DNA from: Minisyncoccota bacterium
GTDB lineage: Bacteria > Patescibacteriota > Minisyncoccia > Phycocordibacterales > PALSA-1337
Length of the DNA: 64,000 bases
Direction: 5' to 3'
Assembly: GCA_041662725.1 (NCBI GenBank)
Contig: JBAZRX010000001.1
Location: 85 to 64,084 of the forward strand
Each line of letters begins with the position of its first letter. The first letter of the stretch is position 1. This document shows positions 11,199-57,800 of the stretch, one piece after another. The notes beneath the pieces were generated by a model. That model was given only the letters and a program-made list of their open reading frames with translations, made no database searches and was not told the origin of the DNA. A program made the translations under genes and the position numbers.

Positions 11199-11221
11199 TG
11201 CTAAGTCTCTGCAAATGTATG

Positions 11222-11295
11222 TCCGCCCCCTAGGATTCGAACCTAGGACCCTCGAGGTATAAGCTCGATGCTCTAACCAACTGAGCTAGGGGCGG
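11222..11295 (-). tRNA. tRNA with anticodon UAU (predicted tRNA-Ile reading AUA)
   Basis: rc folds as CCGCCCC-TA-GCTC-AGTTGGTTA-GAGC-A-TCGAG-CTTATAC-CTCGA-GGGTC-CTAGG-TTCGAAT-CCTAG-GGGGCGG-A. Anticodon positions 34-36 = TAT. CCA not encoded. Confidence 0.75.
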
Positions 11296-15292: not shown

Positions 15293-15463
15293 GTCAAAAT
15301 CATAACTCTAAATTCACAAATCGACTAGACCGATCTGGGAATATTAATAATAATTTCTTTTGGCTTTATAACAGTGCAATTATATGTGCTTGCACTGCGC
15401 AGCTCCGATAGAAGCGAATGCGTGTGCTTGCACTGCGTAGCTCGCGATTAGCGAGCGAAGCAG

Positions 15464-15826
15464 TGGAGATGGGCGGAATCGAACCGCCGTGCAACTGATA
15501 TGATTCGAACGATTCTACGGTGGTAGAAAACTTTATATTTAATGCTCTTACTGAAAAGGTTTTCAAAACATAAGAGCACGATCTCTAGATTTCGGTAAAT
15601 AAGGTGAGAAGTCCTATTTACCTACATTCAAGTTATAACACTCGGTCCTCGAGTTAGAATCCCCCGAGGCGAGCGCGCCCTTTAAACAAAGGCGAATGCA
15701 AAGTCCTTTTGTCCGAAATACGGAGAAACGGTTGTTTTAGCATTTAGAATTTCCATCAGATTTACGAGTTAATGGTGCTCGCACCGCACGAACGAACATG
15801 ATCGATTGTCTATGCCGATCATCCCC
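15464..15826 (-). ncRNA. ssrA: tmRNA (ssrA)
   Basis: rc starts GGGGATG... and ends ...GGCGGTTCGATTCCGCCCATCTCCA (tRNA-like T-arm plus acceptor pairing with the 5' GGGGATG). ~363 nt. Lies immediately downstream of smpB on the same strand. Candidate tag ORF GCT AAA ACA ACC GTT TCT CCG TAT TTC GGA CAA AAG GAC TTT GCA TTC GCC TTT GTT TAA (AKTTVSPYFGQKDFAFAFV*). Confidence 0.75.
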
Positions 15827-18436: not shown

Positions 18437-18484
18437 TTAGTTTTAAGAAAAAAATTATTCATTAAGCTAGAAAAAGAACGTACA

Positions 18485-18509
18485 CCCCAGCTAAAGCTGG
18501 GGGTTTTCT
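18485..18509 (+). terminator. rho-independent terminator after cls
   Basis: CCCCAGC-TAAA-GCTGGGG then TTTTCT. Confidence 0.65.
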
Positions 18510-18511
18510 GG

Positions 18512-18550
18512 TTAAAAGAAAGAGCCTCCGCAAAAAAATTACGGAGGCTC
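18512..18550 (-). terminator. rho-independent terminator after ORF 18557..19267
   Basis: GAGCCTCCG-loop-CGGAGGCTC followed on the minus strand by a U-tract. Confidence 0.6.
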
Positions 18551-18556
18551 AAGTAA

Positions 18557-19267
18557 TCACTGCTTCCAGGCAGCCGACAAGCCGAGGCTGTTATCGTGGC
18601 TGTCATCCCAATAGCTGTCGACGTGTAGGCCCTCATCGAAGCGACCGACGCAGACGTAGCGACCGTCCGAGTCGCAACTGGACGTCCGAACATAAACACC
18701 CTCGAAGAGTCGGACCCCACGAACCTCGAAATAGGTCGTGATGAACCAGCTCATCTCAGCGACGTTCGGCACCTTCTCGAGCGCAGACAGAAGCTTGTTC
18801 TGCTCGCCCCAGGTTTTACTGGTTGAGTTCGAAACAGGCGTCTTCTTGATCAGGAGCCAGCCGAAGGACGTTTTGTCTTCGCGAGCGAACTTCTGGTCGG
18901 AATACCAACCACCCGTCTCCGAGTAGAAGTGGGCGGACTGGATCTCCCGAACATCGAGCGTGGACATCGCCGTGGGTGGCGCAGGCATGACGGCGTAACC
19001 GTTGTCCTTGCACCACTTGAGCACGTCTTCTGACGGCAGACTTTCGGCAAGCGCCATGATCTGTTCGACTGTGTAAACAATGCTCGGGCGAACTTTCGTG
19101 ATTTCCTCGGGTGTAATGAAATCCGCACCGAGGATTGACTGGGCCAGACTGTAATCGGGCGCTTTGGTTGAGAAGCGACGGAACGTTTCGGTAGCTCTCT
19201 GTCCTTTCGGACTGTCTGCGGTTACCAGTGCAGACGTGTTCAATGTTTTCATCGACATCATCTCCAT
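18557..19267 (-). CDS. hypothetical protein in a compositionally foreign (high-GC) gene
   Basis: 236 aa ORF with GC-rich codons (gcg/cgc/gac abundant), unlike the AT-rich flanks. No recognisable motif. Confidence 0.5.
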   Translation of the reverse strand: MEMMSMKTLNTSALVTADSPKGQRATETFRRFSTKAPDYSLAQSILGADFITPEEITKVRPSIVYTVEQIMALAESLPSEDVLKWCKDNGYAVMPAPPTAMSTLDVREIQSAHFYSETGGWYSDQKFAREDKTSFGWLLIKKTPVSNSTSKTWGEQNKLLSALEKVPNVAEMSWFITTYFEVRGVRLFEGVYVRTSSCDSDGRYVCVGRFDEGLHVDSYWDDSHDNSLGLSAAWKQ

Positions 19268-19320
19268 TTGCTGATTTACCGAGAACGCTCGGAACGTCTT
19301 ATCTCATTTAGTAAAATGAC

Positions 19321-19423
19321 CTACTGGGTCAGTTTGAGACGAGCCCTTTATTGCCAAAATTAGGCTCAAAAAGTTTACCCGTCCATAGCTTTATAGCAAA
19401 GAAGGGCTCGTCTCAATCAGTAG
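19321..19423. repeat. imperfect inverted repeat (~26-bp arms, 53-nt spacer) in the divergent region between the high-GC ORF and infC
   Basis: 'ctactgggtcagtttgagacgagccctt' versus 'aagggctcgtctcaatcagtag'. Confidence 0.6.
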
Positions 19424-19566
19424 ATTAACTTGCTAAATCAACAATGATTTTCTATCAAAGAACTACCATAATAGTATACACCTATTATCAGTATCTGTCA
19501 ATACCATTATTTCATTGTCAATTAACTATGAATATGCTATAAATAACCCTTGTAACATATAAGCCA

Positions 19567-22871: not shown

Positions 22872-23480
22872 CTATTCCAAGATCCCATCTAAATCGACGT
22901 CATATAACATCGCCTCAGCAATATGTCTGTAATCAAAGAGTTCTTCTTTTTTAAACCAATGTGCAATCTCATCAAGAGCTTCTTTAGGTGAACCTGAAGC
23001 GTGAACTAGATTACGTACGGCACGTCCATCAACATCACTCATACGATACGAATCAAGAACAAAATCACCACGAATGGTACCCATATCAGAAGTAAGAGGT
23101 TCAGTACCTCCTGTAATTTTGCGAACAATTTCAACAGCATGTGCTCCCTGCCATACCATAGCTATAACTGGCCCCTTGGTCATATAATTTACTAAATTCT
23201 TTAGAATAATAGCGGTAATCTTTAGCGGATCTGTAGAAGGTGGAGTTAAACCTTTATCTGTATAACCTTTAATAGTTTTCAAACCTGTTTTAATACGCCA
23301 TTCTGGATCTAAAGTATAGTGTTTTTCAATAAGTTCAGGAGTTGGTATTGTCATTTTAATTCCAACTAATTTAAGTCCTATCTTTTCGTATCTCTTGATT
23401 ATCTCTCCAATAAGAGACCTCTGAATACCATCTGGCTTAATAACAACTAGCGTACGCTCATATTTTGGGTGTTTTTTCAT
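22872..23480 (-). CDS. ndk: nucleoside diphosphate kinase (with internal insertion)
   Basis: 'ERTLVVIKPDGIQR...GEII.R.E..GLK' N-terminal NDK block and 'NLVHASGSPKEALDEIAHWF' active-site His block. Listed ORF starts 39 nt further upstream. Confidence 0.8.
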   Translation of the reverse strand: MKKHPKYERTLVVIKPDGIQRSLIGEIIKRYEKIGLKLVGIKMTIPTPELIEKHYTLDPEWRIKTGLKTIKGYTDKGLTPPSTDPLKITAIILKNLVNYMTKGPVIAMVWQGAHAVEIVRKITGGTEPLTSDMGTIRGDFVLDSYRMSDVDGRAVRNLVHASGSPKEALDEIAHWFKKEELFDYRHIAEAMLYDVDLDGILE

Positions 23481-23545
23481 AATTCGTTTATTATATGGGA
23501 AAAGTAAGGAATGAAGCAAGAGGAGAGTAGCCCTTAAGGGCTACT

Positions 23546-24334
23546 CTACATTGTCAAAACTTCTGCCCCACTCTTCGTAATCACAATGGTATGTTCAAAA
23601 TGTGCGCTTGGACTGCCATCTGCTGTTCTATACGTCCAACCATCTTTATCAAGTTTAATATTCTTTGTACCAATGTTAAACATCGGTTCAATAGCAATAA
23701 CCATTCCAGGTTTCAAAACTTCTCCTTTACCAGATTCACCGAAATTAGGAACATAGGGATCTTCGTGAACACTGTAACCAACACCATGACCAGCAAGTTC
23801 TTCAACTACTCCATATTTGAAAGGTAAAGCTGTTCTAGAAATAGCATTACCAATATCACCAATCCTCTTCCCTCCTTTAGCGGCTTTTATCCCGGCAAAA
23901 AGTGCCTTCTTTGTAACTTCTATTAATTGTTCTAACTCTAGAGAAATCTTACCAACTGGAACAGTTACTGCGGCGTCAGTAATAAGCCCTTTGTGTGTAA
24001 GACCAAGATCAAGAGAAACGATGTCACCTTCTTTAAGAATCTTATCGGTTTCATTAGGAATACCATGAACAATTTCATCATTTACGGAAACACACAAAGC
24101 CGCTGGGTAAGAACTCTTTGAACCAGCAGGTTTGTAATTAAGAAAAGCTCCTTTATCACCACCTTCAGCAATAAGTTCTAATGCGCGTTTTTCTAATTCA
24201 TAAGAATGAACACCTGGACGGATCATTGAAGATAATTCATTCAAAATAAAAGCGTGTCGTTTACCACCTTCACGGAGAATTTGTATATCTTCTTTTGTTT
24301 TTGTTGTGATCATGTGAGAATTAAACAATTGCAC
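23546..24334 (-). CDS. map: type I methionine aminopeptidase
   Basis: 262 aa; conserved MetAP metal-ligand blocks (D..D..H..E..E). Confidence 0.9.
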   Translation of the reverse strand: MQLFNSHMITTKTKEDIQILREGGKRHAFILNELSSMIRPGVHSYELEKRALELIAEGGDKGAFLNYKPAGSKSSYPAALCVSVNDEIVHGIPNETDKILKEGDIVSLDLGLTHKGLITDAAVTVPVGKISLELEQLIEVTKKALFAGIKAAKGGKRIGDIGNAISRTALPFKYGVVEELAGHGVGYSVHEDPYVPNFGESGKGEVLKPGMVIAIEPMFNIGTKNIKLDKDGWTYRTADGSPSAHFEHTIVITKSGAEVLTM

Positions 24335-24425
24335 AATTTAATAATTAAACAATTGCACAATTTAACAATCCCACAATTGAATAGATACAAGTTGTTTTAA
24401 TTGTCATATTGTAGAATTGTTTAAT
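24319..24425. repeat. ACAATT-family hairpin repeat A1 (arms of tandem 8-bp nnACAATT units; contains a 24-bp internal direct duplication)
   Basis: 'ttaaacaattgcacaattta' x2 ... loop ... 'ttaattgtcatattgtagaattgtttaat'. The right arm encodes the last 7 codons of adk (LNNSTI*). Confidence 0.8.
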
Positions 24426-25024
24426 CTTTCCATAATATCCTTATGAATCTCTTCTACCGACCTTTCTCCAAATATCTTCAAAAAATTATATTTTGGATTA
24501 CCATCATAATAAGAGAGAGTTGGTACAACTTCAGTTTCATACCAAGATAAACGCTCTTTTATATCTTCTTCATTATCATCTATACGCTTTCTAGCTAATA
24601 AACGTTTCAATGCCTCTTCAGAACTAATTTCGATATTCACTAACCATGGTTTTGAAAGATTATAAAAATCAAAAATAGAATTTAGTACACCAGCCTCATG
24701 AAATCTTCTAGGAGTACCATCAAAAATAAGATGTTCATTACCTGTATATTTCTCTGAAAGAACCTTTATCCATAAATATACGGGTAGAAATTCAGGCTGA
24801 AGACCACCTTTATCGTATATCTCTTTTGACTTAATCTGTGTAAAAGTTGGACCATTAATAAATTCTCTTAATTCTTTACCTGTCTCTATATGCAAAATAT
24901 CTCTTGCTGGATCCTTTTCTTTTAAAGCTTTTATTAAAAGCTCCACCTGTGTACCTTTACCACAGCCAGAGCGACCTATAAATATAAATGATTGAGGAAT
25001 CATAAGCTTAAGTTTACAGTGCAA
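24404..25024 (-). CDS. adk: adenylate kinase
   Basis: P-loop 'GRSGCGKGTQ', LID and NMP-binding regions. Confidence 0.9.
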   Translation of the reverse strand: MHCKLKLMIPQSFIFIGRSGCGKGTQVELLIKALKEKDPARDILHIETGKELREFINGPTFTQIKSKEIYDKGGLQPEFLPVYLWIKVLSEKYTGNEHLIFDGTPRRFHEAGVLNSIFDFYNLSKPWLVNIEISSEEALKRLLARKRIDDNEEDIKERLSWYETEVVPTLSYYDGNPKYNFLKIFGERSVEEIHKDIMERLNNSTI

Positions 25025-25082
25025 AAGATAAAATGCAAAGTTCTTTGAATTGAACTCTGCATTTCGCCTTTTGCACTATTTT
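25005..25082. repeat. UGCAAA-family hairpin, copy C3, in the secY–adk spacer
   Basis: 'agtgcaaaagataaaatgcaaagttc ... gaactctgcatttcgccttttgcact' inverted repeat. Confidence 0.6.
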
Positions 25083-26370
25083 AATACTCTCTCATTGCTA
25101 CCTGAGCATCTACTTTCTTTAACAAATCAAGAACTACAGAAACAACGATTAGAAGGGCTGTTCCACCAACAGCAACAGAACGATCATTGCCTGGAGAAAA
25201 AGCTTGGATAATAAGTGGAAGAATAGCGACAGCACCAAGGAAAAGCGCACCAACAAGCGTAATGCGAGTCACAATATTACCTATATGTTCCTGTGTATCC
25301 TCACCTGGTCGTACGCCCGGAATAAATGCTCCTGAACGTTGAAGATTTTCTGAGATCATCTTTGGATCAAAAGTTACAGCTGTATAGAAATATGTGAAAA
25401 GTACAACTAAAACAAAGTAGACGGCGCCATAGAACCATTGATTATTGAAGAGTGTCACTACATAAGAAGCCAAACTTGCGATAGTTGGGTAAGCGGCCCA
25501 CTTAGCTAAAGCTGATGCAATAATCTGAGGAAACATCAATATGGAAAGAGCGAAGATTATTGGAATAACGCCAGATTGATTAAGACGTAATGGTAAATAA
25601 GTTGATGAGCCACCGTATACTTTATTACCACGCACTTGTTTAGCATAAGTTACAGGCACAGAGCGTTCAGCTTCCGTAACATAGACTACACCAGCAACAG
25701 AAGCAATAGCGATGACTAACACTGCAAGGTAGAAAGGAAGATCTGATGCTCCAGCTGTAATAATTTTCTGATAATTTTGTACAATTGCCGTAGGTAAACT
25801 GGAAACGATACCAGCAAATATAATAAGTGAAACACCGTTGCCTATACCAAATTCTGATATAAGTTCACCGATCCACATAAGTAACATTGAACCAGCAGAT
25901 ACAACAATAACGTTAACAATGAAAGAGAATATATCCATTTGCGGTAATACATTCTGTGATTGCAAAAGAATAATGAAACCAATACCTTGAACAACAGCCA
26001 AAGGCGCACCGATAAGGCGAGAATACTGTGAAAGTTTCATGCGTCCAGCATCACCTTCTTCATGCATAAGAGCTTTCCATGAAGGAAACATCATGGTCAA
26101 TAACTGGATAATGATAGAAGCTGTGATAAAAGGACCAACACCAAGCATAACTATGGAAAGGTTTGAAAGACCTCCTCCAGAAAATATATTCAAAAACCCA
26201 AGAAGTTGACTAGAGGAGAGTAATTTTGCTAACGCTACAGGGTCAATTCCTGGAATAGGAATAGATGCTAATGCGCGAAATATTACAAGAGCAATAACAG
26301 CAAAACCAATCCTCTTTCTTAAGATTGGATCTCTGAAAGCTATCGTTACTTTTTCTATAAAATTTTGCAT
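25081..26370 (-). CDS. secY: preprotein translocase subunit SecY
   Basis: 429 aa, 10 TM; conserved SecY plug/TM2-TM7 blocks. Confidence 0.95.
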   Translation of the reverse strand: MQNFIEKVTIAFRDPILRKRIGFAVIALVIFRALASIPIPGIDPVALAKLLSSSQLLGFLNIFSGGGLSNLSIVMLGVGPFITASIIIQLLTMMFPSWKALMHEEGDAGRMKLSQYSRLIGAPLAVVQGIGFIILLQSQNVLPQMDIFSFIVNVIVVSAGSMLLMWIGELISEFGIGNGVSLIIFAGIVSSLPTAIVQNYQKIITAGASDLPFYLAVLVIAIASVAGVVYVTEAERSVPVTYAKQVRGNKVYGGSSTYLPLRLNQSGVIPIIFALSILMFPQIIASALAKWAAYPTIASLASYVVTLFNNQWFYGAVYFVLVVLFTYFYTAVTFDPKMISENLQRSGAFIPGVRPGEDTQEHIGNIVTRITLVGALFLGAVAILPLIIQAFSPGNDRSVAVGGTALLIVVSVVLDLLKKVDAQVAMREY

Positions 26371-29505: not shown

Positions 29506-30060
29506 CTATTTCTTCACTTCCTCCCTCTTCAACGGTAATCCTAAATGTTCCAAGAAAGCCAATGTGGTCTTCTTATCTTTTGAAGTAGTAACTATGGTAA
29601 TTGCAAATCCAAAAACGTTTTTCAAATCTTCATCAGATGTTTCTGGAAAAATAGTATGCTCTTTGATACCAAGAGTATAATTACCCATAGCATCAACTGA
29701 ACCACGTGATAATCCACGGAAGTCCTTCGTACGAGGTAAGGCTACATGAACAAGACGATCTAAAAACTCATTCATTCGGCGACCACGAATAGTAATGATA
29801 TAACCAATAGGGTCACCTGTACGTGTCTTGAATGACGCAATAGCTTTCTTTGTAGCACGTACAGCTGGCTTTTGACCTGTAATCTTGGCCAATCTGTCAG
29901 CAATAAGTTCTATTTTGTTCTTATCTTTAACTGATCCAAATCCATTAGAAATAACCACTTTAACTAAACGTGGTGCTTGCATTGGATTCTTAAGATTAAG
30001 TGGGCCTTTTAGAGCCTCAAATGCATTTTTACTTAATTCATTTACAGTTGTGTATGACAT
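29506..30060 (-). CDS. rplE: 50S ribosomal protein L5
   Basis: 184 aa L5 consensus. A 211-nt spacer separates it from rpsN. Confidence 0.9.
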   Translation of the reverse strand: MSYTTVNELSKNAFEALKGPLNLKNPMQAPRLVKVVISNGFGSVKDKNKIELIADRLAKITGQKPAVRATKKAIASFKTRTGDPIGYIITIRGRRMNEFLDRLVHVALPRTKDFRGLSRGSVDAMGNYTLGIKEHTIFPETSDEDLKNVFGFAITIVTTSKDKKTTLAFLEHLGLPLKREEVKK

Positions 30061-30065
30061 GGTGG

Positions 30066-30206
30066 TTAATTAAACAATTCTACGATATAACAATTAGATA
30101 ATTACACAATTCTACAATATGACAATCAAATAGCTATAAATTGTGTTAATTGTTTAATTGTCATATTGTAGAATTGTCATATTGTTTAATTGTTTAATTT
30201 TTTAAT
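30066..30206. repeat. ACAATT-family hairpin repeat A2 (largest; ~60-bp arms of 8-bp units nnAATTGT)
   Basis: Left 'ttaattaaacaattctacgatataacaattagataattacacaattctacaatatgacaat', loop 'caaatagctata', right 'aaattgtgttaattgtttaattgtcatattgtagaattgtcatattgtttaattgtttaatt'. Confidence 0.85.
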
Positions 30207-30435: not shown

Positions 30436-30478
30436 TTTAACAATTCTACAATATAACAATTAAACAATTACAATTAAA
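30436..30478. repeat. ACAATT-family single-arm tandem array A3
   Basis: 'aacaattctacaatataacaattaaacaattacaatt'. Confidence 0.7.
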
Positions 30479-31334: not shown

Positions 31335-31350
31335 ATAATTCTTATGTGTT

Positions 31351-31404
31351 TATTCGTAGATTTGTATATTTGTAGCTCATTCGCATAATTCGTAAATTCG
31401 TAGT
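31351..31404. promoter_or_regulatory. ACGAAT-family motif B1 upstream of rpmC
   Basis: 'tattcgtagatttgtatatttgtagctcattcgcataattcgtaaattcgtagttt' shares the ~40-nt core with 44700..44746 and 52450..52488. Confidence 0.6.
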
Positions 31405-34325: not shown

Positions 34326-34424
34326 AAAAATGATTTATTTAAATAAAACCGACTGATTCGATTAAGACTAATTGTAAAACAAATTGATAATTTTAGCTAA
34401 TGATTGAATCATTACTTATGCGTT

Positions 34425-34729
34425 TAGAGCTTGGTAAATATGTTCTTTCATAACACTTGGTTGTAATTCAAATAATTGCACAATATGACAATTTAACAAT
34501 TAAGCTTGTTTCTAGCAAAACCCCACCACACTCATGTTCTAGAGCATTTCGCAGGCGTCGGGGAAATGTAATCCGCATACCTACGACACGACGCCGAGAA
34601 TAGACGGCCTTGCGAGTCTTTCGTTATTCGAGCAAGGCCGATCGTGCTCTAGAACATGAGTGTGGTGGGGTTTTGCTTAGAGATGGCGATCTTGCGAGTG
34701 TTATGAAAGAACATATTTACCAAGCTCTA
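34425..34729. repeat. 305-bp nested palindromic element (MITE-like or structured regulatory RNA/DNA)
   Basis: Outer perfect 33-bp IR (34425..34457 vs 34697..34729). Inner perfect 32-bp IR (34515..34546 vs 34645..34676). GC-rich core with further short IRs (ggccttgc/gcaaggcc). Contains an ACAATT-family arm at 34462..34505. Confidence 0.85.
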
Positions 34730-34740
34730 TACACGGTATT

Positions 34741-35577
34741 ATGATATTATTAGTTCATATGTTTTATGAACTATTTATTAATGGGTCACCTATTCTTAAT
34801 GGTAATGTTGTTGTCGTATTTACACTTATTTTCTCATTCTTAGCAATAATCTTAGCTCTTATTACCTATACTATTAGAAAGATAAAAGAAAATGAATCAC
34901 AAAAATATGAATTCATTACTATTATCGCTCACAAATTTCGCACACCGTTAACTTCAATAAAATGGCTTGCTTTGTCATTAATACAAAAAGAAACAGACCC
35001 TTATAAAAAACAAGACTTAGAAGATATCAACAAGTCCAATCAAAAACTCATAGATCTTACTGGAACTTTGATAGAATTGACCGAAAACGCTAATTCAAGC
35101 AAAGCTTCATATGTTTTTGAACGATTATCCTTATGTTCCCTAGTGCGTGATGTCTCCGATACATTTAAAGACTCTTTCCATAAGAAAAATATATTCTTTT
35201 CCGTCAGCTGTTCGGAGGAAATTTTTGTTAAAGCTGATAGACCAAGATTGGAATTTGTAATTCAAACTATTTTAGAAAATGCGCGCAATTATACATCTCC
35301 AGGCAAGAATGTTGATGTTTTTGTGTCTCGCTTACATCGCAGAGCTATTATCACTGTAGTAGATCATGGTATAGGCATAGACCAAAAAGATATTTCAAAG
35401 ATTTTTTCAAAATTCTATAGAACTCAAAATGCAAAATCTTTTGATACCGAAGGATTCGGTGTAGGTTTATACCTGGCAAAATCAATTATAAGACATCACC
35501 GAGGTAAAATAGAGATATTTTCTGAAGGAATAGATAAAGGCTCAACTTTCTCAATTGTCTTACCTAAAGTAAAATAA
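34741..35577 (+). CDS. sensor histidine kinase (orphan; no adjacent response regulator)
   Basis: 278 aa. One N-terminal TM, H-box 'IAHKFRTPLTSIKW', N/G1/G2 boxes 'ILENARNYT', 'DHGIGID', 'GFGVGLYLAKSII'. Confidence 0.8.
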   Translation: MILLVHMFYELFINGSPILNGNVVVVFTLIFSFLAIILALITYTIRKIKENESQKYEFITIIAHKFRTPLTSIKWLALSLIQKETDPYKKQDLEDINKSNQKLIDLTGTLIELTENANSSKASYVFERLSLCSLVRDVSDTFKDSFHKKNIFFSVSCSEEIFVKADRPRLEFVIQTILENARNYTSPGKNVDVFVSRLHRRAIITVVDHGIGIDQKDISKIFSKFYRTQNAKSFDTEGFGVGLYLAKSIIRHHRGKIEIFSEGIDKGSTFSIVLPKVK

Positions 35578-38309: not shown

Positions 38310-39551
38310 TTATTCATAACGAAGCGCTTCTATTGGACTTTTCTTTGAAGCTTGTCTAGCAGGATAACCACCAAATATAAGACCTATAAGAGCCGATACA
38401 GAAAGACCTAGAATTGCACCGTCCCAAGGAAAAACAAATGTCCAATTAACACCTAAACCTTTAGACAAAACTATAGCGGCTATAAGAGCTAGAGAAGCTC
38501 CTAAAATAATACCTATAATTCCACCTATAGCTGTAAGCATAACCGCTTCAAGAAGAAATTGGGTTAGAATATCTCTATCAGTAGCACCTAAGGCTTTGCG
38601 TAAACCTATCTCACGTGTACGCTCTGTTACAGCCACAAGCATAATATTCATAATACCTACACCGCCTACAAACAAAGCAATTGAAGCTACGGCCACAAGA
38701 AACCAAGTTAAAGCAGATGTAATAGTTCCAAGTCTATTAGCCAGATCTTCTTGAGTTTGAACATAAAAATCATCTTTAGAAGAATCGGTAATACCATGAG
38801 ATTCCCTAAGAGTCCTACGAACATCTTCAGCTGTAGACTGAACTTGGTTATCAGTTTTCGCCTGGATAATAAAATGATGATAATACTTAATACCAAGCAT
38901 GTAATTATTTGCTGTTGTGTAAGGAACAACCACTGCCTCATCAAAATTAAATAATGAACCACCACCACCCTTCTCTAAGACTCCTACAATTTTAAGATTA
39001 CGATTCTTTAATTTTATCTTCTGTCCTATTGGATTTTCACCATCAATAAATAAATGCTCAACTACTTTTGCACCTATAACTGCCACATCCGCACGAGAAG
39101 AGACGTCATCTAGAGCAAAGAAATCTCCTTCAGCTATTTTCGCATCGAATATATCAGCAAGAAGCTCCGTACCTCCAAAAATAGATACTTGATAAACTTC
39201 AGATTTATATGAGGCTGAATCAGCACCAGCAACAAGAGGCATAAGTACTTTCAGATCTGGAACATTAGTTAATTTCATGAGCTCTCTTATGTCTTTATCT
39301 TTAAGAGAATCACTAAACATCTGAGCAGAATCAGATGGTCCAGTAGGTTCTCTCCCAGGAGTAACTATTATTGTGTTTGTTCCTAATCCCTGTACTTGCC
39401 CAAGGATAAGCTCTTGTGCACCAGCTCCAATTGAAACAACCATCATAATAGCTGTGATACCGATCACAATGCCTAGAATCGTCAAAAATGATCTTGATCT
39501 ATTCGTAGTAAGTCCGGTTAATGCTGTTTTTATTGAGTGTTTCCAAGTCAT
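38310..39551 (-). CDS. ABC transporter permease (MacB/FtsX family)
   Basis: N-terminal TM, large extracytoplasmic domain, C-terminal FtsX 4-TM bundle. Listed ORF extends to 39620 and overlaps the ATPase gene; start placed at the internal 'MTWKHSIKTAL'. Confidence 0.8.
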   Translation of the reverse strand: MTWKHSIKTALTGLTTNRSRSFLTILGIVIGITAIMMVVSIGAGAQELILGQVQGLGTNTIIVTPGREPTGPSDSAQMFSDSLKDKDIRELMKLTNVPDLKVLMPLVAGADSASYKSEVYQVSIFGGTELLADIFDAKIAEGDFFALDDVSSRADVAVIGAKVVEHLFIDGENPIGQKIKLKNRNLKIVGVLEKGGGGSLFNFDEAVVVPYTTANNYMLGIKYYHHFIIQAKTDNQVQSTAEDVRRTLRESHGITDSSKDDFYVQTQEDLANRLGTITSALTWFLVAVASIALFVGGVGIMNIMLVAVTERTREIGLRKALGATDRDILTQFLLEAVMLTAIGGIIGIILGASLALIAAIVLSKGLGVNWTFVFPWDGAILGLSVSALIGLIFGGYPARQASKKSPIEALRYE

Positions 39552-39567
39552 AAAATAACAATTTGCC

Positions 39568-40284
39568 TTATTTAACAAATTCATCACTAGCTGTAAGTCT
39601 TTTTTTAACTTTCGTATCACTTTCTATCTCCCCATCCATGAGTCTAATAATACGCTCCGCATGTTCTGCAGTAGAAGTCTCATGAGTTATAAGGACGATG
39701 GTTTTTCCATGTTCTTCATTCAAATGCTGTATGATAGCCATAACATTTTTCCCTGACTTAGAATCAAGATTACCAGTAGGTTCATCAGCAAAGATTACTT
39801 CAGGGTCAGTAACTAATGCCCTAGCGATAGCTACACGTTGTTTCTCTCCACCAGAAAGTTCTGACGGTTGGTGGTACATCCTATGCTCCAAACCAACAGA
39901 TATAACTGCTTTGCGAGCTCTCTCTTCCCATTCATTTTCAGAAACTTTTGAGTAATACAGCGGTAATTTCACATTTTCAAGTACAGATGTGCGTGGTAAA
40001 AGATTAAACATTTGGAAAACAAAACCAATTTCACGGTTACGTAAATCGGCTAATTCATCACTAGTATATGTTGATACATTTTTTCCATTAAAAGTATAAC
40101 GCCCGCCAGTTGGAGTGTCTAAAAGACCAAGTAAATGCAGTAATGTTGATTTACCACTACCAGAAGGGCCCATAATAGCCAAAAACTCACCTTTACGGAC
40201 GGAAAAAGATACTTTATTTAAAGCAATAGTATCTATACCATCATCGTATGACTTTTTTAGGTTGTTTACATCTATTATGTTCAT
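39568..40284 (-). CDS. ABC transporter ATP-binding protein (MacB/LolD-type)
   Basis: Walker A 'GPSGSGKST', signature 'LSGGEKQRVAIARAL', Walker B 'IFADEPTGNLD'. Confidence 0.9.
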   Translation of the reverse strand: MNIIDVNNLKKSYDDGIDTIALNKVSFSVRKGEFLAIMGPSGSGKSTLLHLLGLLDTPTGGRYTFNGKNVSTYTSDELADLRNREIGFVFQMFNLLPRTSVLENVKLPLYYSKVSENEWEERARKAVISVGLEHRMYHQPSELSGGEKQRVAIARALVTDPEVIFADEPTGNLDSKSGKNVMAIIQHLNEEHGKTIVLITHETSTAEHAERIIRLMDGEIESDTKVKKRLTASDEFVK

Positions 40285-40289
40285 GAAAA

Positions 40290-40378
40290 TTTAACAATTA
40301 CACAATTAGACAATTTAACAATTGAGACGCCGTGCTTTAATTGTTCAATTGTGTAATTGTTAAATTGTAGAATTACTA
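40290..40378. repeat. ACAATT-family hairpin repeat A5
   Basis: 'aacaattacacaattagacaatttaacaattg' – loop 'agacgccgtgcttt' – 'aattgttcaattgtgtaattgttaaattg'. Confidence 0.8.
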
Positions 40379-41902
40379 TTTTACATACGTCACAATCTTA
40401 TCCCCTGCTCTCAATCCTGAAATAATTTCAACCATACCATCTGAACCTTTAAGACCAACTTCTACAGGTATTGATACAAAACTTTTACCATCAGATCCAA
40501 GAAGACGCACATTTTTTGTTCCAGAAACATCAATAATAGTTCTTGTAGGAACAGTAATCACGTTACTGCGTTCACGAGTCAGTATATCTAAGTTAGCGGT
40601 CATGCCAGAACGAATACGCTCATCTTTCTGTAAAAAATGTAAAGTAACTTTATAAGTAGGTACGCCTTCCAATATTGTTTCAGCCGGGTCCATAGTAACT
40701 GCTACTGCCGGAAAATCCACATTCTGACCATAAGCATCCAAAGTAGTAGAAGCATAATTACCAATAACAATCTTAGCAATATCAGCTTCTGGAACATAAG
40801 CTTCTATTTTATATACATCATCACTTTGAACTCCATACACAATCTTACCTGCCTGAACAAATTCACCCACACTAGGATCTGCACGAGTAATAATGCCGCT
40901 AATAGGAGAAACTATTCTATCTTTTTCATATTCTGCTTTATATGCTGCTACCAGAGCGGCTTGTGCCGCAATAGTTTGAGCAGATGACCCCGTCTTTCTT
41001 AAAATAAAATTGCTATCAGCTTGTTCATACGCTGACAAAGCATTTTCCAAACCAGTTTTCGCACTAGTAATTGAAGCTATAGCTTGATTCGTTAATGTAA
41101 GGCCTGAGTTTATTGATGAAACATAAGTATCAATAGTAGCCTGAGTTAAACCAGAATTACCTAGATTTAGATTATTAACAATAGTAGAAAGGCTACTCAT
41201 AAAATCTCTCACCACATTTACATACATATCTGCTTTTGAAATAAGAATATTTATATTATCTGTTGATGTTACAGCATCAATATCTGCTTTCCACTTAACT
41301 AAAGTTTCAGCTACTGAAATACGTGACATGTTAATTGTATTTTTTTCAGTTTGAGACTGAGTACGTACTTTTATTTCAGGGTTAGCACTTTGAGGACTAT
41401 CAAATAATGAATCGGCATAGTTTGTAATAGCACTTTGTGCCTGTACATAAGCCGTTCTAGAAGCATCAAAAGCTTCTTGTTTAGCATTCGCAAGAGAAAC
41501 TTTAGCTGTATTAACCTTTGATTGTTCCACTGCAAGTTCTTGTGAATTCAGATTGCGAGATAAATCATCCAACTTAGCTTGTGCTGAAGCAAGATTAGCA
41601 GCATCACCAGAACTGTTAAGCCCAGCAATCAGCGAACCTTTTTCTATTTTATCCCCAACTTTGACATTAATAGTTTTAATAATTCCACCTTTTTCAAAAG
41701 CCAAATCCGCCTTACCAACTGGAGATATTTTACCAGTAACACTAACTTTTTCTGTAATATTACCAACAGTAGCTACAGCGAATTCTATATTAACAGCAGG
41801 ATTTCTATTATAAAAAATAAATACTAGTACAATCGCAAGTATTACTACAAAAATAAAAACATATTTGTTTTTAATATAATGCTTAAAAAAAGATCTTTTC
41901 AT
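40376..41902 (-). CDS. efflux periplasmic adaptor (HlyD/MacA-like) protein
   Basis: N-terminal TM, long coiled-coil region, beta-barrel/lipoyl-like C-terminus. Listed ORF extends to 41962 across a GC-rich palindrome; start placed at 'MKRSFFKHY'. Confidence 0.65.
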   Translation of the reverse strand: MKRSFFKHYIKNKYVFIFVVILAIVLVFIFYNRNPAVNIEFAVATVGNITEKVSVTGKISPVGKADLAFEKGGIIKTINVKVGDKIEKGSLIAGLNSSGDAANLASAQAKLDDLSRNLNSQELAVEQSKVNTAKVSLANAKQEAFDASRTAYVQAQSAITNYADSLFDSPQSANPEIKVRTQSQTEKNTINMSRISVAETLVKWKADIDAVTSTDNINILISKADMYVNVVRDFMSSLSTIVNNLNLGNSGLTQATIDTYVSSINSGLTLTNQAIASITSAKTGLENALSAYEQADSNFILRKTGSSAQTIAAQAALVAAYKAEYEKDRIVSPISGIITRADPSVGEFVQAGKIVYGVQSDDVYKIEAYVPEADIAKIVIGNYASTTLDAYGQNVDFPAVAVTMDPAETILEGVPTYKVTLHFLQKDERIRSGMTANLDILTRERSNVITVPTRTIIDVSGTKNVRLLGSDGKSFVSIPVEVGLKGSDGMVEIISGLRAGDKIVTYVK

Positions 41903-41918
41903 AAACAAATACATTGTA

Positions 41919-41952
41919 CCACGAGGCCTCGCCTCGAGGCGAGGCCTCGTGG
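41919..41952. promoter_or_regulatory. perfect 34-bp GC-rich palindrome upstream of the efflux operon
   Basis: 'ccacgaggcctcgcctcgaggcgaggcctcgtgg' is its own reverse complement; stark GC contrast with the surroundings. Confidence 0.7.
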
Positions 41953-42035
41953 AAATCGCCATAAAAAGTCTTAAGCAAACAAATATCCGTAGATTTTCTT
42001 AAGTAAAGCAGACAAAAACAAACTAGATATTAAGA

Positions 42036-42066
42036 AGCACGAAAAATCCCCTGCAGGGGATTTTTC
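42036..42066 (-). terminator. rho-independent (bidirectional) terminator after rplC
   Basis: 'aaaaatcccctgcaggggattttt'. Confidence 0.65.
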
Positions 42067-42166
42067 TAGTCCTCAATGATTTTTCTGCTGAAAAATCATT
42101 TGCGGAGCCTCTTCATACCTATTTGTTTTCGTCTGCTACTATTTTATCGCTATGGAACACTAAAAT

Positions 42167-42772
42167 TTAACCCACTATCTCCACAAGCGTTCCCCTTCTT
42201 CCAGGAATAGCTCCTGAAACGTATAAAACACTTTCTTCAGCATCAATGTGAGCAACTTTAAGATTGGTAACGGTAATACGATCACTACCCATACGTCCTG
42301 CCATACGCATACCTACCGGAACATGTGTACGTAAGCCACCACCGATAGAACCTGCTTCACGTTCAGAGTGTTTCTGACCATGAGAACGAGGTCCTCCTCC
42401 GAAACCATGACGTTTTACAACACCCTGAAAACCTTTACCTTTGGAAACTGCTGTAACCATTACAGTATCACCTGGTTTGAACTGTGATATTTCTATCTTA
42501 TCTCCAACTTTAAGCGTAGGACTTTCAACACGAAATTCCTTAACTGAAGCAAATGATCCTAATTCCTTGAAATGACCTTTTTGTGGTTTATTTATACGAT
42601 TTGGATTACGAGAACCCTCGCCTATCTGTACAGCTTCATAACCATCTGTGTCTTTGGTGCGAACTTGTGTAACGACATTTCCACGTATAACTACTGCTGT
42701 AACTGGAATAGCAACACCAGAGGCATCGTATATTTGTGTCATATTCAGTTTTCTTCCTAGAATAAATTTCAT
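42167..42772 (-). CDS. rplC: 50S ribosomal protein L3
   Basis: 201 aa L3 consensus. Confidence 0.9.
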   Translation of the reverse strand: MKFILGRKLNMTQIYDASGVAIPVTAVVIRGNVVTQVRTKDTDGYEAVQIGEGSRNPNRINKPQKGHFKELGSFASVKEFRVESPTLKVGDKIEISQFKPGDTVMVTAVSKGKGFQGVVKRHGFGGGPRSHGQKHSEREAGSIGGGLRTHVPVGMRMAGRMGSDRITVTNLKVAHIDAEESVLYVSGAIPGRRGTLVEIVG

Positions 42773-43182: not shown

Positions 43183-43269
43183 ATTCAACAATTTAACAAT
43201 TCCACAATTTAACAATCAAAACACCGTGTTCTAATTGTTAAATTGTCATATTGTTGAATTGTTAAATTA
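43183..43269. repeat. ACAATT-family hairpin repeat A6 (tuf–rpsJ spacer)
   Basis: 'caacaatttaacaattccacaatttaacaat' – loop 'caaaacaccgtgttc' – 'taattgttaaattgtcatattgttgaattgttaaatt'. Confidence 0.8.
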
Positions 43270-44457: not shown

Positions 44458-44635
44458 GTGATTATTGATTTAGTGCCCTGATTTTTTGGATCTTATCGTT
44501 AACGGTTGTGTGCAAACGCTAGCGATAGAGATCCAAAAAAAAGGGATAAATTATTAATAGTTAATAAATAATAATGAACTAAAGACTAACAAAACGCAGG
44601 GTCTGCGCTTGTATCATAAGATAGCATAACGCAAT

Positions 44636-44746
44636 AAAATTCGCAAATTTTTTTCTACGAATCTACGAATATGCGAATGAAACACAGCATCTGCGATTAT
44701 TCGTAGATTCGTAGCCCATTCGCATAATTCGTAGATTCGTAGTTTA
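44636..44746. promoter_or_regulatory. ACGAAT-family hairpin B2 (upstream of tuf, immediately downstream of the giant gene)
   Basis: Left arm 'ctacgaatctacgaatatgcgaatg', right arm 'cattcgcataattcgtagattcgtag'; 8-bp ctACGAAT units. Confidence 0.75.
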
Positions 44747-47700
44747 CTTAGCAAAATATTCTCCTAAAGAATCCCAAACTGAAGCTCTTCCACTAGTACT
44801 ATTATTTACAGAAGTTGGTGCTGAATTAGGGGTTGGTGTAGGAGTTGGTGTAGGTTTTATTAAATTATAATATTCTGCTGTATTCATCAGAACGCCTTTT
44901 ATATAACTAATATCATAACCAGAATTTACCCAGTAATCTAAACCAGCTTGATCTGGATTACGTTTAAGTAAAGTTACGTACAACTGAGTTATATCATTAA
45001 TTCTTGCTTGTTTTGGAGAAATTGTTGATGTTGGGGTTGGGGTTAAAGTTGGTGTAGGTGTTGGTGAATAATACGGTTTTGTTGTTGGTGAAGGAGAAGG
45101 AGTAATTACTGAAGATTGTGCCTTCACAGTTGTTGTTTGACTTGAAACTATTGATGAAACAGGAATAACCGCAACAGCCTGTGAACCATCGGTGAATTTA
45201 ACTATAAGTTTACCGCCATACCATGTTGTTATTGACTCTTTTTGACCATAGAGCATATAGACTTGAGAACTATATGATGCTTGACCAAGAGGCAAAACGT
45301 CATAATACTTATCATTAAATTGAGTACTTGAGCCCTGTATAACAATAACAAGTGGATATGGCTTTCTACCATAAGAATCAAGTTCGGCACTTGTTGACCA
45401 CGCTTCACCATTATTATCACTCAAAACAGTTATTGATTTTATACTTTTTCCACCAGCACTATTGATTTTCATTTCCATACGCCATCCCCAATCAGATGGA
45501 TCTTTACTTATATACCCACGTCCAGAACTAAATTGATCCCAAGCACCAGCACGATCTTCATTGGCGCTATACACAACAGCTTTAATAGTGCCATCAAATG
45601 TAGGGTAATTCGATGACGGTGTTTGTGTAGGGGTAGGATTTAAAGAAACAGCAGAAGTTTTAATTGTAGACTGTGTTACTTTTGCATATGTTGGTGGAAG
45701 ACTAAGCTTCTCTTCGTCTGATGCTATAACTGTTTTACCATCTTTTACTGAAAGAAGTTCGGCCTTAGCAACAACAGTTTGGACAACACTGGTATTATTT
45801 TTAAATATCACATCAATAAAACCGTCAGGAGCAACTTTATTTTTTACACCACAAGCAAGACCGCCGTTTACATTAGTTGGAGCTGAAGCGACAACACCTG
45901 TAGGACAGACGATTGAAAGAATCCAATCAAACTCATCAACTTGACTGTTTGTAGAATAACGTACACGAATACCTTCATTAGTTCCGATTATTTTTGAAGA
46001 AAGAGTAAAAACAGAAGAAGAAACTGGGGCTGTAATAGAAGATTGTGCCGAATTAGAAACTTTAACTTTTATAGTATTACTTTTTATAGCTTCATTTTTA
46101 GCATTTAAGGACATTAAATATAAATTGTAATCACCATCAACAATAGAAGTAGTTGGCTCATTCCACCAACCATCTGGATGCACGCCACGACCTATTGTGC
46201 TAGGAATTGTAAAACTGAGTTTAGAACCATCGTATAGTGAATATCCTGTTAATGTACGAACATCATGAGAATACCCCACTGACCATGTTTTTGAGCCATC
46301 AACTGTTGTAAGAATAATATTTCCTGTTCTACCAGCACCTGTTGCATAAATTGTTAATAAAGATCCTACTGAAACAGGCTGAGGTGCAACTCGGCTTATT
46401 TCTGGTTGTACTCCACTTACTGGAGGAATAATACTAAAAAAATCATTACTATCATCACAAATATCTGTTCCTGCTTTACATACCCTTGCCTTATATTGAC
46501 CAACAGAAATTTGACTAGGATACGTAGAAAATCCGAGTGACTGTGCATTTTTATTTGATGGTTTTAAATTTAACTGGATAGGACTTGGTATAACTTGACC
46601 AGATGAATTTAGTAACTTTACATCAACTGATTGGGTAGGATCTATGGAATCCCATATAACACTCAATGATTCGCCCTGTGCTATTTTTTCTCCTCCATTA
46701 GGTGAAACAATAACAACACTACCCCTATTAGGAGCTGGAACGTCAACTTTAGCCTTAACCGCTTTTGCATTACATGATGCATTTATTTTTTTTAAAGTAA
46801 AAGGTCCAGCAACGCCAGTTGAAGGAACTCCGATTGATGTTTGAAATGCTTTTACTGCGGCTTTGGTATCAGAACCAAAATATCCCTTCAGAGCATTACC
46901 TAAAGAAATACTCGGAATATCAAAACCGTTATTGATCAACCATGTTTGCAAAGCTACGACTTCTGATCCAGAACTACCTACAGAAAGGCCAGAGTTTTCT
47001 AAAGCAAAGATAGCTGAGAAGTTGTAACACAAACTTATTCCTGAAGAAGCTTTGAATTTAGAGTTAGTTGAATCAACTGAACTATCCGCCACAGTACACA
47101 CATATCCGGTAGGACATCCTTCAGGTTGAACAGCTAGAGGTGTACAAACATAACCTTCAGGACATGAAAAAGGAAGTGTACAAATATATCCAACAGGACA
47201 TAAAACAGAAGATTGCTCTAGTGCATCCCCTACAGCGGCAACAAGTCTTGTATCTCTTGGTACAAGACTAACTGGACTAGAACTCGGCATTGGTGTTGGA
47301 GAAGATGAAGATGTTGGAGAAGTTGAAGGAGTCGGTGTAGGAGATGGAGTTGAAGAAGGTGTAGGAGATGGAGTTGGAGTAATAATCGGTGTTGGGGTAG
47401 GAGTAGAAGCTGGAGATGGCGTTGGTGTTGAAGAAGGAGCTACTGAAGGAGTCGGCGAAGAATAATAACTTGAAGTTGGAGATGGTGAAGGTGTATATGT
47501 TGGTGAGTAAGTAGATGTTGGGGAAGGAGTATATGTTGGGGAATAAGAAGAAGTTGGTATAGGAGTAGAAGTTGGTCTAGGTGTATATGTTGGTGAGTAA
47601 GTAGAAGTCGGAACAGGAGTTGCTGAAGATACTGGTCTAGGAGTAGCTGAGTAAGCAGGAATTGGAGTTGTTGCTGGAACATAAGCAGGACTTGGAGAGA

Positions 47701-52360: not shown

Positions 52361-52380
52361 ATTTTAATAATATTTTTTAT

Positions 52381-52488
52381 AACGAATCTACAAATTATGC
52401 GAATGACTACAAATCTACAAATATTTGCAAACATTATGTTTCATTTGCATATTCGTAGCCCATTCGCATAATTCGTTAATTCGTAGTT
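52381..52488. promoter_or_regulatory. ACGAAT-family hairpin B3 upstream of rpsL (likely str-operon promoter region)
   Basis: 'acgaatctacaaattatgcgaatg' ... 'cattcgcataattcgttaattcgtag'. Core 'attcgtagcccattcgcataattcgt' identical to B2. Confidence 0.75.
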
Positions 52489-55685: not shown

Positions 55686-55738
55686 GCGAGATAAAATCCT
55701 GATAAAGAAACGATAAAGATTTGATAAAGATTTGATAG
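55686..55738. promoter_or_regulatory. ~50-nt repeat (copy 1) in the divergent region between the MBL gene and sod
   Basis: 'gagataaaatcctgataaagaaacgataaagatttgataaagatttgatag', near-identical to 57746..57798. Confidence 0.7.
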
Positions 55739-57745: not shown

Positions 57746-57798
57746 TTTTACTCAGAAGAGATAAATTCCTGATAAAGAAGTAATAAAGATTTGATAAA
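57746..57798. promoter_or_regulatory. ~50-nt repeat (copy 2) immediately upstream of comEC
   Basis: 'gagataaattcctgataaagaagtaataaagatttgataaagattatagag'. Confidence 0.7.
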
Positions 57799-57800
57799 GA

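Follow-up and report, generated by a model that had tools for sequence, protein, structure and literature searches.

The stretch of DNA analysed here (the window) comprises 64,000 nt of contig JBAZRX010000001.1 from a Minisyncoccota bacterium and contains a cluster of translation genes, in which the spacer between the genes for ribosomal proteins L24 and L5 is filled by two facing arrays of tandem octamers. The genes of the region are arranged in the order fusA, a gene for a 1439-aa protein, tuf, S10, L3, HlyD/ABC/MacB transporter, L4, L23, L2, histidine kinase, DUF1189 protein, S19, L22, S3, L16, L29, S17, L14, L24, L5, S14, S8, L6, L18, S5, L15, SecY, Adk, Map and Ndk, and are located on the minus strand apart from the plus-strand histidine kinase gene. 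The L24-L5 element (A2; 30066..30206, minus strand) is a complete foldback occupying the space from the L24 stop codon (30202-30204) to the L5 start codon (30058-30060). One arm (~30068-30130) consists of ACAAT units as read on the plus strand and the other (30139-30201) of ATTGT units, with 7-8 octamers each, and the corresponding RNA is predicted to fold with -40.8 kcal/mol (z score -7.8).

Six copies of this element, designated family A, are present within the 64 kb of the genome that were covered. Three further copies on the minus strand are likewise complete foldbacks: A1 (24319..24425) between adk and map, which has unequal arms of 7 versus 3 units (z -4.3); A5 (40288..40376) between the HlyD-like and the ABC-ATPase genes, with loop gagACGCCGTGcttt (z -7.2); and A6 (43183..43269) between tuf and rpsJ encoding S10, with loop aaaACACCGTGttct (z -8.7). 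As RNA, the four complete copies are predicted to form AU-rich stems of 31-48 bp with -27 to -41 kcal/mol and z scores of -4.3 to -8.7. The remaining two are single arms, which do not fold on their own (z +0.2 to +0.3; +0.29 for A3). A3 (30436..30478, minus strand; (AUUGUnn)n in the mRNA) fills the L14-L24 spacer, with the L14 stop codon inside its first unit, while A4 (34462..34505) lies in the spacer separating the divergent DUF1189 (minus strand) and histidine kinase (plus strand) genes, where it forms a one-sided bulge within a large nested palindrome (34422-34732). An earlier note on this DNA had listed six head-to-head arrays, all of them between minus-strand ribosomal cistrons. All six loci are indeed present where they had been placed, and those starting at 24319, 30066, 40290 and 43183 consist of facing arrays that fold well, whereas those at 30436 and 34462 are lone arms; moreover, the locus at 34462 lies in a divergent spacer and the one at 40290 separates transporter genes within the S10 cluster. 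The same note had assigned the last seven codons of adk to one arm. The distal arm of A1 does overlap the end of adk (its final 5-6 codons and stop codon), but homology of Adk to its relatives extends up to '...HKDIMERL' and the array encodes the remaining five, non-conserved residues (NNSTI) plus the stop codon.

The arrays are distinguished by their phasing. Pairs of ACAAT at exact 8-bp spacing (ACAATNNNACAAT) occur 32 times in the window as compared to 0.50 ± 0.66 times (maximum 3) in 100 shuffled sequences, while the hexamer ACAATT by itself is not over-represented (91 occurrences versus 82.5 expected). The signal therefore resides in phasing and clustering rather than in base composition. 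Since enrichment is confined to the 8-bp phasing of ACAAT, a composition artefact is ruled out, and the periodicity is significant also against the AT-rich background, which the earlier note had named as a potential confounder. In a sliding lag-identity scan of the window, lags 8, 16 and 24 were the short periodicities standing out; lag 18 scored as well, but corresponds to a coding repeat at another place. Tandem Repeats Finder detected period-8, -16 and -24 arrays at each family-A locus. An assembly artefact is likewise ruled out, as the independent Logan assembly of run SRR18595301 is 100% identical over window positions 22912-26074 and thus spans A1. A seventh in-phase site with three ACAAT units (10580-10600) is a coding coincidence rather than an element: it is part of a recG-like gene and encodes RQFNNGTIK, which has the appearance of a normal stretch of RecG as in E. 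coli.

A sequence logo computed over 48 phased units yielded the consensus nnACAATt, with an information content of 1.5-2.0 bits at the five core positions, about 1 bit at position 8 and 0.2-0.3 bits at the two spacer positions; the core is kept even in the one-armed copies. Family-A elements share the termini ATTwAACAATT ... AATTGTTwAAT. In addition, A5 and A6 have the loop motif ACRCCGTG, which the earlier note had already recognised and which can be read in both sequences, and the terminal unit TAGTAATT in common, and the 16-mer ACAATTCTACAATATG is common to A1, A2 and A3. The arms differ by indels of whole units, as exemplified by a 16-nt bulge in A2, and contain duplicated multi-unit blocks (period 16/24 duplications with 85-96% match). 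Both copying between loci and local expansion are thus visible in family A.

The elements are absent from the corresponding sites of a close relative. L131+L258 shares the gene order of the window, down to the transporter within the S10 cluster, and its S10 has 90% identity. None of eight matching junctions carries an array element there, and the spacers measure 1-36 nt. With window spacer lengths counted from curated start codons, the differences (window versus L131+L258) are 97 versus 8 nt for tuf-S10, 91 versus 10 nt for HlyD-ABC, where A5 is a clean insertion, 113 versus 1 nt for L22-S3, 66 versus 36 nt for L16-L29, 47 versus 9 nt for L14-L24, 141 versus 16 nt for L24-L5, 77 versus 16 nt for secY-adk and 90 versus 9 nt for adk-map. 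Alignment to the empty sites of L131 revealed clean stop-to-start insertions with no target-site duplication resolvable in the AT-rich, diverged flanks. The L24-L5 spacer is also short in other relatives, comprising 16 nt in L123 (90% identical), 5 nt in L124 (86%) and 26 nt in L126 (84%), and no arrays were found in L124 and L126. In the closest relative (L121/L122, from samples JGI 3300014208 and ERZ27249449; 98% identical) this spacer has 49 nt and contains a 10-bp, one-unit mini-hairpin, AAUAAUUCUA...UAGAAUUGUU, which has the same 3' end as A2 and a partly homologous loop. Both L121/L122 assemblies stop exactly at the L24 start codon, i.e. at the site that carries A3 in the window. Taken together, the elements of the window are probably recent lineage-specific insertions or expansions.

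A related element is present at tuf-S10 in another species, whose S10 is 87% identical (L133-L136). It is a foldback of 88 nt with period 8, in which the units AACCATT, AACTATT and AACAATT face AATAGTT and AATTGTT. Hence, the core change from ACAAT to ACTAT is mirrored in the opposite arm (ATTGT to ATAGT), and ACCAT also occurs. This element is identical in four population samples, which exhibit 46 variable sites in the 1.8-kb flanks. Variation in unit number within populations, as known from contingency-type simple sequence repeats, was not seen; unit numbers differed only between species-level relatives. The tuf-S10 elements of the window and of L133 may be orthologous or may represent independent insertions of the same family, and both origins account equally for the shared 3' end, because this end is the family terminus. 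An exact look-up of the L5 protein retrieved no record, the DUF1189 neighbour of A4 retrieved no relatives from metagenomes, and a family-A 21-mer matched three metagenome contigs, none from a close relative, of which two are unrelated sequence and the third, belonging to a different genome, contains a direct ACAAT array that precedes a start codon.

At least three families with the same array-armed hairpin architecture, but with unrelated units, coexist in the window. Family B is built from the unit ATTCGTAG on the plus strand (CUACGAAU in the mRNA) and has three minus-strand copies. B1 (31343..31402) is a single arm between L16 and L29 and begins directly after the L16 TAA. B2 (44654..44742) is a complete foldback that immediately follows the stop codon of the 1439-aa protein and precedes a conserved terminator and the tuf leader; its RNA is predicted to fold with -47.3 kcal/mol (z -9.6). 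B3 (52380..52487) is a complete foldback upstream of rpsL encoding S12 (z -8.8). Approximately 45 nt are common to the three copies, and B1 and B2 each begin right after TAA. Family C uses 7/14-nt units of the AAATGCAAA type (AAAAUGC-type in RNA). It comprises C1 (20085..20220) between convergent genes, the short hairpin C2 (25018..25077, minus strand; z -10.1) between secY and adk, and C3 (32522..32632, minus strand) between L22 and S3; z scores of the C elements range from -2.4 to -10.1. C1 and C3 are reverse complements over ~100 nt, and family-C copies thus occur in both orientations relative to transcription. Altogether, copies of B and C have 45-100 nt of non-periodic sequence in common between loci. 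A scan by absolute minimum free energy picked up mainly GC-rich RNAs and failed to detect the AU-rich elements. Comparison with the covariance models of Rfam yielded no match at gathering score, but only chance-level matches to hairpins of microRNA precursors (E up to 1).

The positions of the elements relative to the flanking reading frames are precise. Complete family-A elements fill the stop-to-start spacers tuf-S10, HlyD-ABC, L24-L5 and adk-map, such that the upstream stop codon abuts or falls within the first unit and 3-7 nt separate the last unit from the next AUG. Elements occupy 12 of the 26 spacers in the translation-gene cluster at 20-53 kb, but none of the 21 spacers elsewhere in the window (Fisher's exact test, p = 3.7e-4). 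No Shine-Dalgarno sequence precedes any start codon of the window (e.g. those at 30060, 30426 and 43172). Starts are rather preceded by A/U-rich sequence ending with (A/U)ACC or CAC, which resembles a Kozak context. With the hairpin closed, the stop-to-start distance would be 2-12 nt for family A, 13 nt for C2 and 22 nt for C3, which resembles the native 8-16-nt spacers of the relatives.

How could essential ribosomal operons tolerate such inserts? The reading we favour, and which we hold to be somewhat likelier right than wrong, is that the six ACAATT loci represent four complete and two one-armed copies of a single foldback repeat family that is selfish or nearly neutral and resembles repetitive extragenic palindromic (REP) sequences and MITEs (miniature inverted-repeat transposable elements). 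The shared termini and loops show that this lineage acquired the copies by a copying process, which placed them in the short spacers between stop and start codons of co-directional genes. The arms subsequently grow and shrink in situ as blocks of 8, 16 and 24 nt are duplicated or lost, and they stay largely complementary. Given the lack of a promoter or terminator between the flanking genes, the elements are presumably co-transcribed inside the polycistronic mRNA and would fold there into AU-rich hairpins of 31-48 bp. Closure of the hairpin would loop the insert out and bring stop and start codons back within 2-12 nt, thereby keeping termination-reinitiation coupling in a genome devoid of Shine-Dalgarno sequences; it is this renewed closeness of stop and start that would make the inserts tolerable. 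Likely secondary consequences would be that RNase III cleaves the stems or that they protect against exonucleases. The earlier note was correct in postulating a non-random family of hairpins with microsatellite-like arms, but missed their dispersal, their gain or expansion in this lineage and the existence of units beyond ACAATT.

To place family A in a wider context, species-representative genomes were scanned for four in-phase ACAAT units, and prokaryotic counts were obtained from 120 loci among the matches listed. A facing inverted array was present in 14 of these 120 loci, six of which belong to the Candidate Phyla Radiation (CPR), the group in which the earlier note had proposed to look for the unit, six to Bacteroidota (mostly Saprospiraceae) and two to unclassified genomes, whereas none of 120 viral loci with the same ACAAT pattern had one. 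In 13 of the 14 facing loci among the matches listed the order is ATTGT-loop-ACAAT, as opposed to ACAAT-loop-ATTGT in the window, and these layouts are not interconvertible by a strand flip. A unit-agnostic detector found an inverted copy facing 48 of 229 periodic regions in prokaryotic loci (among the matches listed), versus 4 of 352 in viral loci, all four being low-complexity AT sequence. Periods 7 and 8 dominate among the units that had not been selected for, and short units recur across phyla. Uhrbacteria L076 carries three unit families (ACAATnnn, GGAATTT and GGTCCGTG) and Peribacteria L056 has four elements at one locus. As in the window, tight co-directional spacers are affected, e.g. 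L15-SecY in Patescibacterium L075, the secE-nusG-L11 cluster in L076 and atpF-atpH in the cultured bacterium Flavipsychrobacter stenotrophus RB1R16 (L009; NZ_PPSL01000002.1, ~348,942-349,101). The operon types carrying such hairpins elsewhere are accordingly spc, L11 and atp, and copies within those genomes have loops or termini in common and occur in both orientations. Family A can thus be regarded as one representative of a wider group of array-armed hairpins, which is found in several genomes of CPR and Bacteroidota.

Two observations were made alongside. Arrays of the heptamer GGAATTT / AAATTCC are located in Uhrbacterium L076 (3189-3264), Bacteroidales L084 (1111-1156) and Saprospiraceae L101 (3196-3226), although these loci had not been selected for that unit; facing arms were read in L076, whereas for L084 and L101 an inverted copy is indicated by the detector flag only. 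An unrelated metagenome contig retrieved through a chance match (L128) contains three foldbacks (7185-7385, 9690-9820 and 12030-12130) whose arms consist of 11-nt units (GAGCAAACATC) and which have the loop in common and occur in both orientations.

The class shares features with several known repeat types and coincides with none of them. Sequences of the REP type, including REP doublets forming hairpins (REPINs) and bacterial interspersed mosaic elements (BIMEs), consist of GC-rich stems of 20-40 nt, tagged by GTAG or CGTC, and are associated with REP-associated tyrosine transposases (RAYTs) (Di Nocera et al. 2013, PMC3733652). Like these, the elements described here are small dispersed palindromes without coding capacity that occupy the spacers of co-directional or convergent gene pairs, in most cases right behind a stop codon; they form several families per genome, some copies reach into gene ends, and their hairpins are predicted to be co-transcribed as RNA. 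Unlike REPs, they measure 85-141 nt with 31-48 paired positions, are AU-rich and composed of tandem octamers, family-A termini carry neither GTAG nor CGTC as an unpaired tag, and a RAYT was not found among the window proteins scanned. A GTAG/CTAC tetranucleotide, typical of REP tags, is however part of every family-B unit including the terminal one, which is suggestive of a link to REP tags for family B alone.

The Correia elements (CREE) of Neisseria are MITEs that dwell in operons and give rise to hairpin transcripts which RNase III can bind, with cleavage or protection as the outcome (PMC2649163), and Chunjie of Geobacter is cited in PMC3184786 as a MITE inserting in operons. Similar to such MITEs, the present elements have terminal inverted repeats, are small, lack coding capacity, insert in operons without breaking them and are dispersed in copies that are present or absent between close genomes, as illustrated by the eight occupied versus empty junctions; single-arm copies exist too. 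They differ in that MITEs have terminal repeats of unique sequence, a core and target-site duplications, whereas in the present elements a tandem array makes up the entire arm, a duplication could not be resolved, and they have no known parent insertion sequence. A third point of comparison concerns architecture only, namely inverted repeats composed of tandem short sub-repeats. Eukaryotic Foldback (FB) transposons, exemplified by Drosophila FB, Galileo and Tetris, have long inverted repeats of tandem short units that vary in number; FB elements are of kilobase scale, use units of 10-31 bp and have known transposase partners. The arms described here share with the FB type (PMC4079207, PMC3573991) the composition from tandem short units and the variable unit number, but FB elements are eukaryotic and far larger, and no evolutionary link is implied.

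The fourth comparison is with the intergenic TAACTGA heptamer repeats of Beggiatoaceae, Cyanobacteria and Bacteroidetes, for which one inverted set among 170 was reported (MacGregor 2015, PMC4679880). Shared features are units of 7-8 nt ending a few nt before starts without Shine-Dalgarno sequence, also in ribosomal-protein operons, a patchy distribution across phyla and stop codons within the unit. TAACTGA repeats are direct, whereas the characteristic form here is two facing arrays making a hairpin, with the different unit nnACAATt; merely A3 and B1 resemble the direct layout. Full-text searches of the literature retrieved accounts of REPs, MITEs, BOX/RUP, heptamer direct repeats and eukaryotic foldback elements, and none of bacterial hairpins with tandem-octamer arms or of intergenic repeats in Patescibacteria, in agreement with the earlier note, which did not recognise a described repeat class. 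Small dispersed palindromic repeats are thus already known, while the array-armed architecture is apparently new.

Several points weigh against the repeat-family reading. No transposase or other mobilising gene was found among the window proteins scanned and no target-site duplication was resolved, and mobility is therefore deduced from distribution only. Copy number was counted in 64 kb of the genome. Transcription, in vivo folding and translational coupling of the elements are predicted features. The five core positions are near-invariant over 48 units next to two free positions, which plain slippage and drift do not predict and which hints at sequence-specific constraint. Moreover, the elements cluster in the operons with the highest expression, which could reflect function rather than tolerance, and the tuf-S10 element is invariant in the four population samples of L133-L136. 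The invariant core, the preference for units of 7-8 nt and the recurrence of units across phyla remain unexplained by a selfish or nearly neutral repeat.

Among the alternatives, we give most room to host-selected RNA cis-elements, although this explanation is unlikely. The hairpins would then serve as processing sites for RNase III or another double-strand-specific enzyme and/or as barriers to exonucleases, cutting the super-operon transcript into segments of differing stability, e.g. tuf versus the S10 operon. The predicted stems of 31-48 bp exceed the ~20 bp required by RNase III, Correia elements provide a precedent for RNase III binding followed by cleavage or protection (PMC2649163), and the mirrored core change in the arms of L133-L136 as well as the constancy of that element in four population samples fit selection on structure. 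The strictly intercistronic positions and the enrichment in highly expressed stoichiometric operons, both here and elsewhere (spc, L11, atp), point in the same direction. However, if the RNA strand were under selection, G.U pairs should favour folding of the sense strand, and no such asymmetry emerged over 24 elements of known direction: the sense RNA folded better than the antisense RNA in 10 cases, worse in 8 and equally well in 6 (Wilcoxon p 0.68). Single elements are strongly asymmetric; in C3 the antisense strand is better by 18 kcal/mol. Thus, polarity belongs to the element rather than to the host transcript. In addition, close syntenic relatives manage with spacers of 1-16 nt at the same junctions, one-armed copies exist, and ribosomal proteins of one operon need equal rather than differential dosage.

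A rather improbable explanation is that the arrays are binding sites for a sequence-specific protein, either on double-stranded DNA, as for ribbon-helix-helix proteins, or on single-stranded RNA, with one domain of the oligonucleotide-binding (OB)-fold, S1 or cold-shock protein (Csp) type per 7-8 nt, a mode that has been proposed for the TAACTGA heptamers. Known ribbon-helix-helix arrays comprise the 8-bp met boxes of MetJ, the 7-bp heptads of omega and the tetramer boxes of ParG. The elements resemble them in their contiguous 7-8-bp units, arranged directly and inverted, and in the conserved core. An invariant core of 5-6 nt with two free positions over 48 units, its retention in one-armed copies, the dominance of periods 7 and 8 among unselected units and the recurrence of the same short units across phyla would all be expected of binding sites, and the arrays end a few nt upstream of starts without Shine-Dalgarno sequence like the TAACTGA repeats (PMC4679880). 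Yet, ribbon-helix-helix arrays are situated at promoters or centromeres beside the gene of the binder, whereas the present arrays lie between cistrons, and no transposase, ribbon-helix-helix or RNA-binding candidate was detected among the 20 non-ribosomal window genes scanned. At least three unrelated units in 64 kb, with more elsewhere, would make several dedicated proteins necessary, drift of the core is seen from one species to another (ACAAT to ACTAT/ACCAT), and an 8-bp period places successive sites on different faces of B-DNA. These findings weaken the proposal of the earlier note that the arrays serve one sequence-specific protein. A match to the boxA element recognised by NusB/NusE was considered as well. 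The boxA consensus is of the GCUCUUUAACAA type; in the units only ACAAU is conserved, while the UUUAAC portion is free to vary and GCUC is missing, and this candidate was rejected.

A bolder variant of the binding hypothesis, which we regard as equally doubtful, envisages array-armed hairpins as cis-elements of an undescribed, widespread post-transcriptional system in bacteria without Shine-Dalgarno sequences (CPR, Bacteroidota). Every unit of 7-8 nt would accommodate a single domain of an S1-like, cold-shock or comparable single-strand binder, and switching between the closed hairpin and an open, protein-coated strand would set mRNA processing and the coupling of adjacent cistrons in stoichiometric operons for ribosomal proteins and ATP synthase; in this case, the elements would have spread because of the regulatory property they carry. 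It is the invariant core, the 7-8-nt preference and the cross-phylum units that keep docking sites for a trans-acting factor under consideration.

Still less probable is an origin of the arrays as local mutational by-products, with neither mobility nor function, through slippage and quasi-palindrome template switching from a small pre-existing hairpin. The one-unit hairpin with partly homologous loop in the 98% identical relative, the visible block duplications, the whole-unit indels between arms and the presence of several unit families per genome are consistent with such a process. Nonetheless, unit, termini and loops are shared by elements at six separate junctions, where the ancestral spacers were 8-16 nt long and unrelated in sequence, and in families B and C non-periodic stretches of 45-100 nt are common to different loci and occur in both orientations, so that copying between loci is required.

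It is highly improbable that the elements act as internal promoters or as intrinsic terminators in the ribosomal operons: some promoter-like hexamer pairs do fall in arrays (e.g. TTGTTA-17-TATTAT upstream of S10) and the C2 hairpin was flagged as terminator-like, but promoter-like sites are not enriched in the window (72 versus 70 ± 8.8), family-A hairpins were not called as terminators and have AU-rich stems without U-tract, unlike the genuine terminators at 42041-42066 and 44592-44610 (the latter upstream of tuf and conserved in L131), which combine a GC-rich stem with a U-run, and relatives do without any spacer at these junctions. Overall, we found no evidence within the window for a dedicated binding protein or for a role as promoter or terminator.

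Returning to the interpretation as REP/MITE-like foldback repeats, the elements illustrate that the tightly packed, conserved operons of a tiny CPR genome accept inserts of 90-140 nt, suggestedly because these fold away. The architecture of tandem 7-8-mers in hairpin arms is recognisable, recurs in several CPR and Bacteroidota genomes and can be searched for systematically. There are practical consequences for metagenome-assembled genomes, as the elements break short-read assemblies, exemplified by both assemblies of the closest relative ending at an element boundary, and create false gene ends such as the adk tail, which is relevant to annotation. Should conservation of the core reflect a trans-acting factor, the elements would open a route to post-transcriptional control in the absence of Shine-Dalgarno initiation, and the cultured carrier F. 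stenotrophus makes this question testable.

Further features of the region were recorded. The HlyD/ABC/MacB-type transporter (38310-41962) is inserted between L3 and L4, inside the S10 cluster, and is present in L131 too; the histidine kinase gene (34741-35577), also inside this cluster, lies between L2 and S19 and is likewise found in L131 and L124. The 1439-aa protein (44744-49063), located between fusA and tuf, has a signal peptide and coding repeats of 18/36/54 nt (47294-47783), and is missing from this position in L131. The nested palindrome surrounding A4 (34422-34732) is the only one of its kind in the window. It has an outer inverted repeat of 36 nt with 97% complementarity and a perfect inner repeat of 33 nt (34514-34546 / 34645-34677) around a GC-rich core of 98 nt, and its RNA is predicted to fold with -169 kcal/mol (z -20.9). 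It could represent nested mobile elements or a structured RNA.

Outside the translation-gene cluster, an 11-bp unit, TGATAAAGATT, forms direct arrays of 3-3.5 copies at 55700-55737 and 57770-57802 in spacers near a ComEC-like gene, and this period suits binding to the same face of DNA. Relatively GC-rich non-coding stretches with strong structure are located at 18437-19566 and 41850-42176. The latter includes a weak tmRNA-like match on the minus strand (41914-42176; E 0.003) beside the good terminator at 42041-42066, whereas the true tmRNA is encoded at 15461-15826. Finally, the window contains a gene for tRNA-Ile (11221-11295) with anticodon UAU (TAT in the gene), which is an uncommon way to read AUA.

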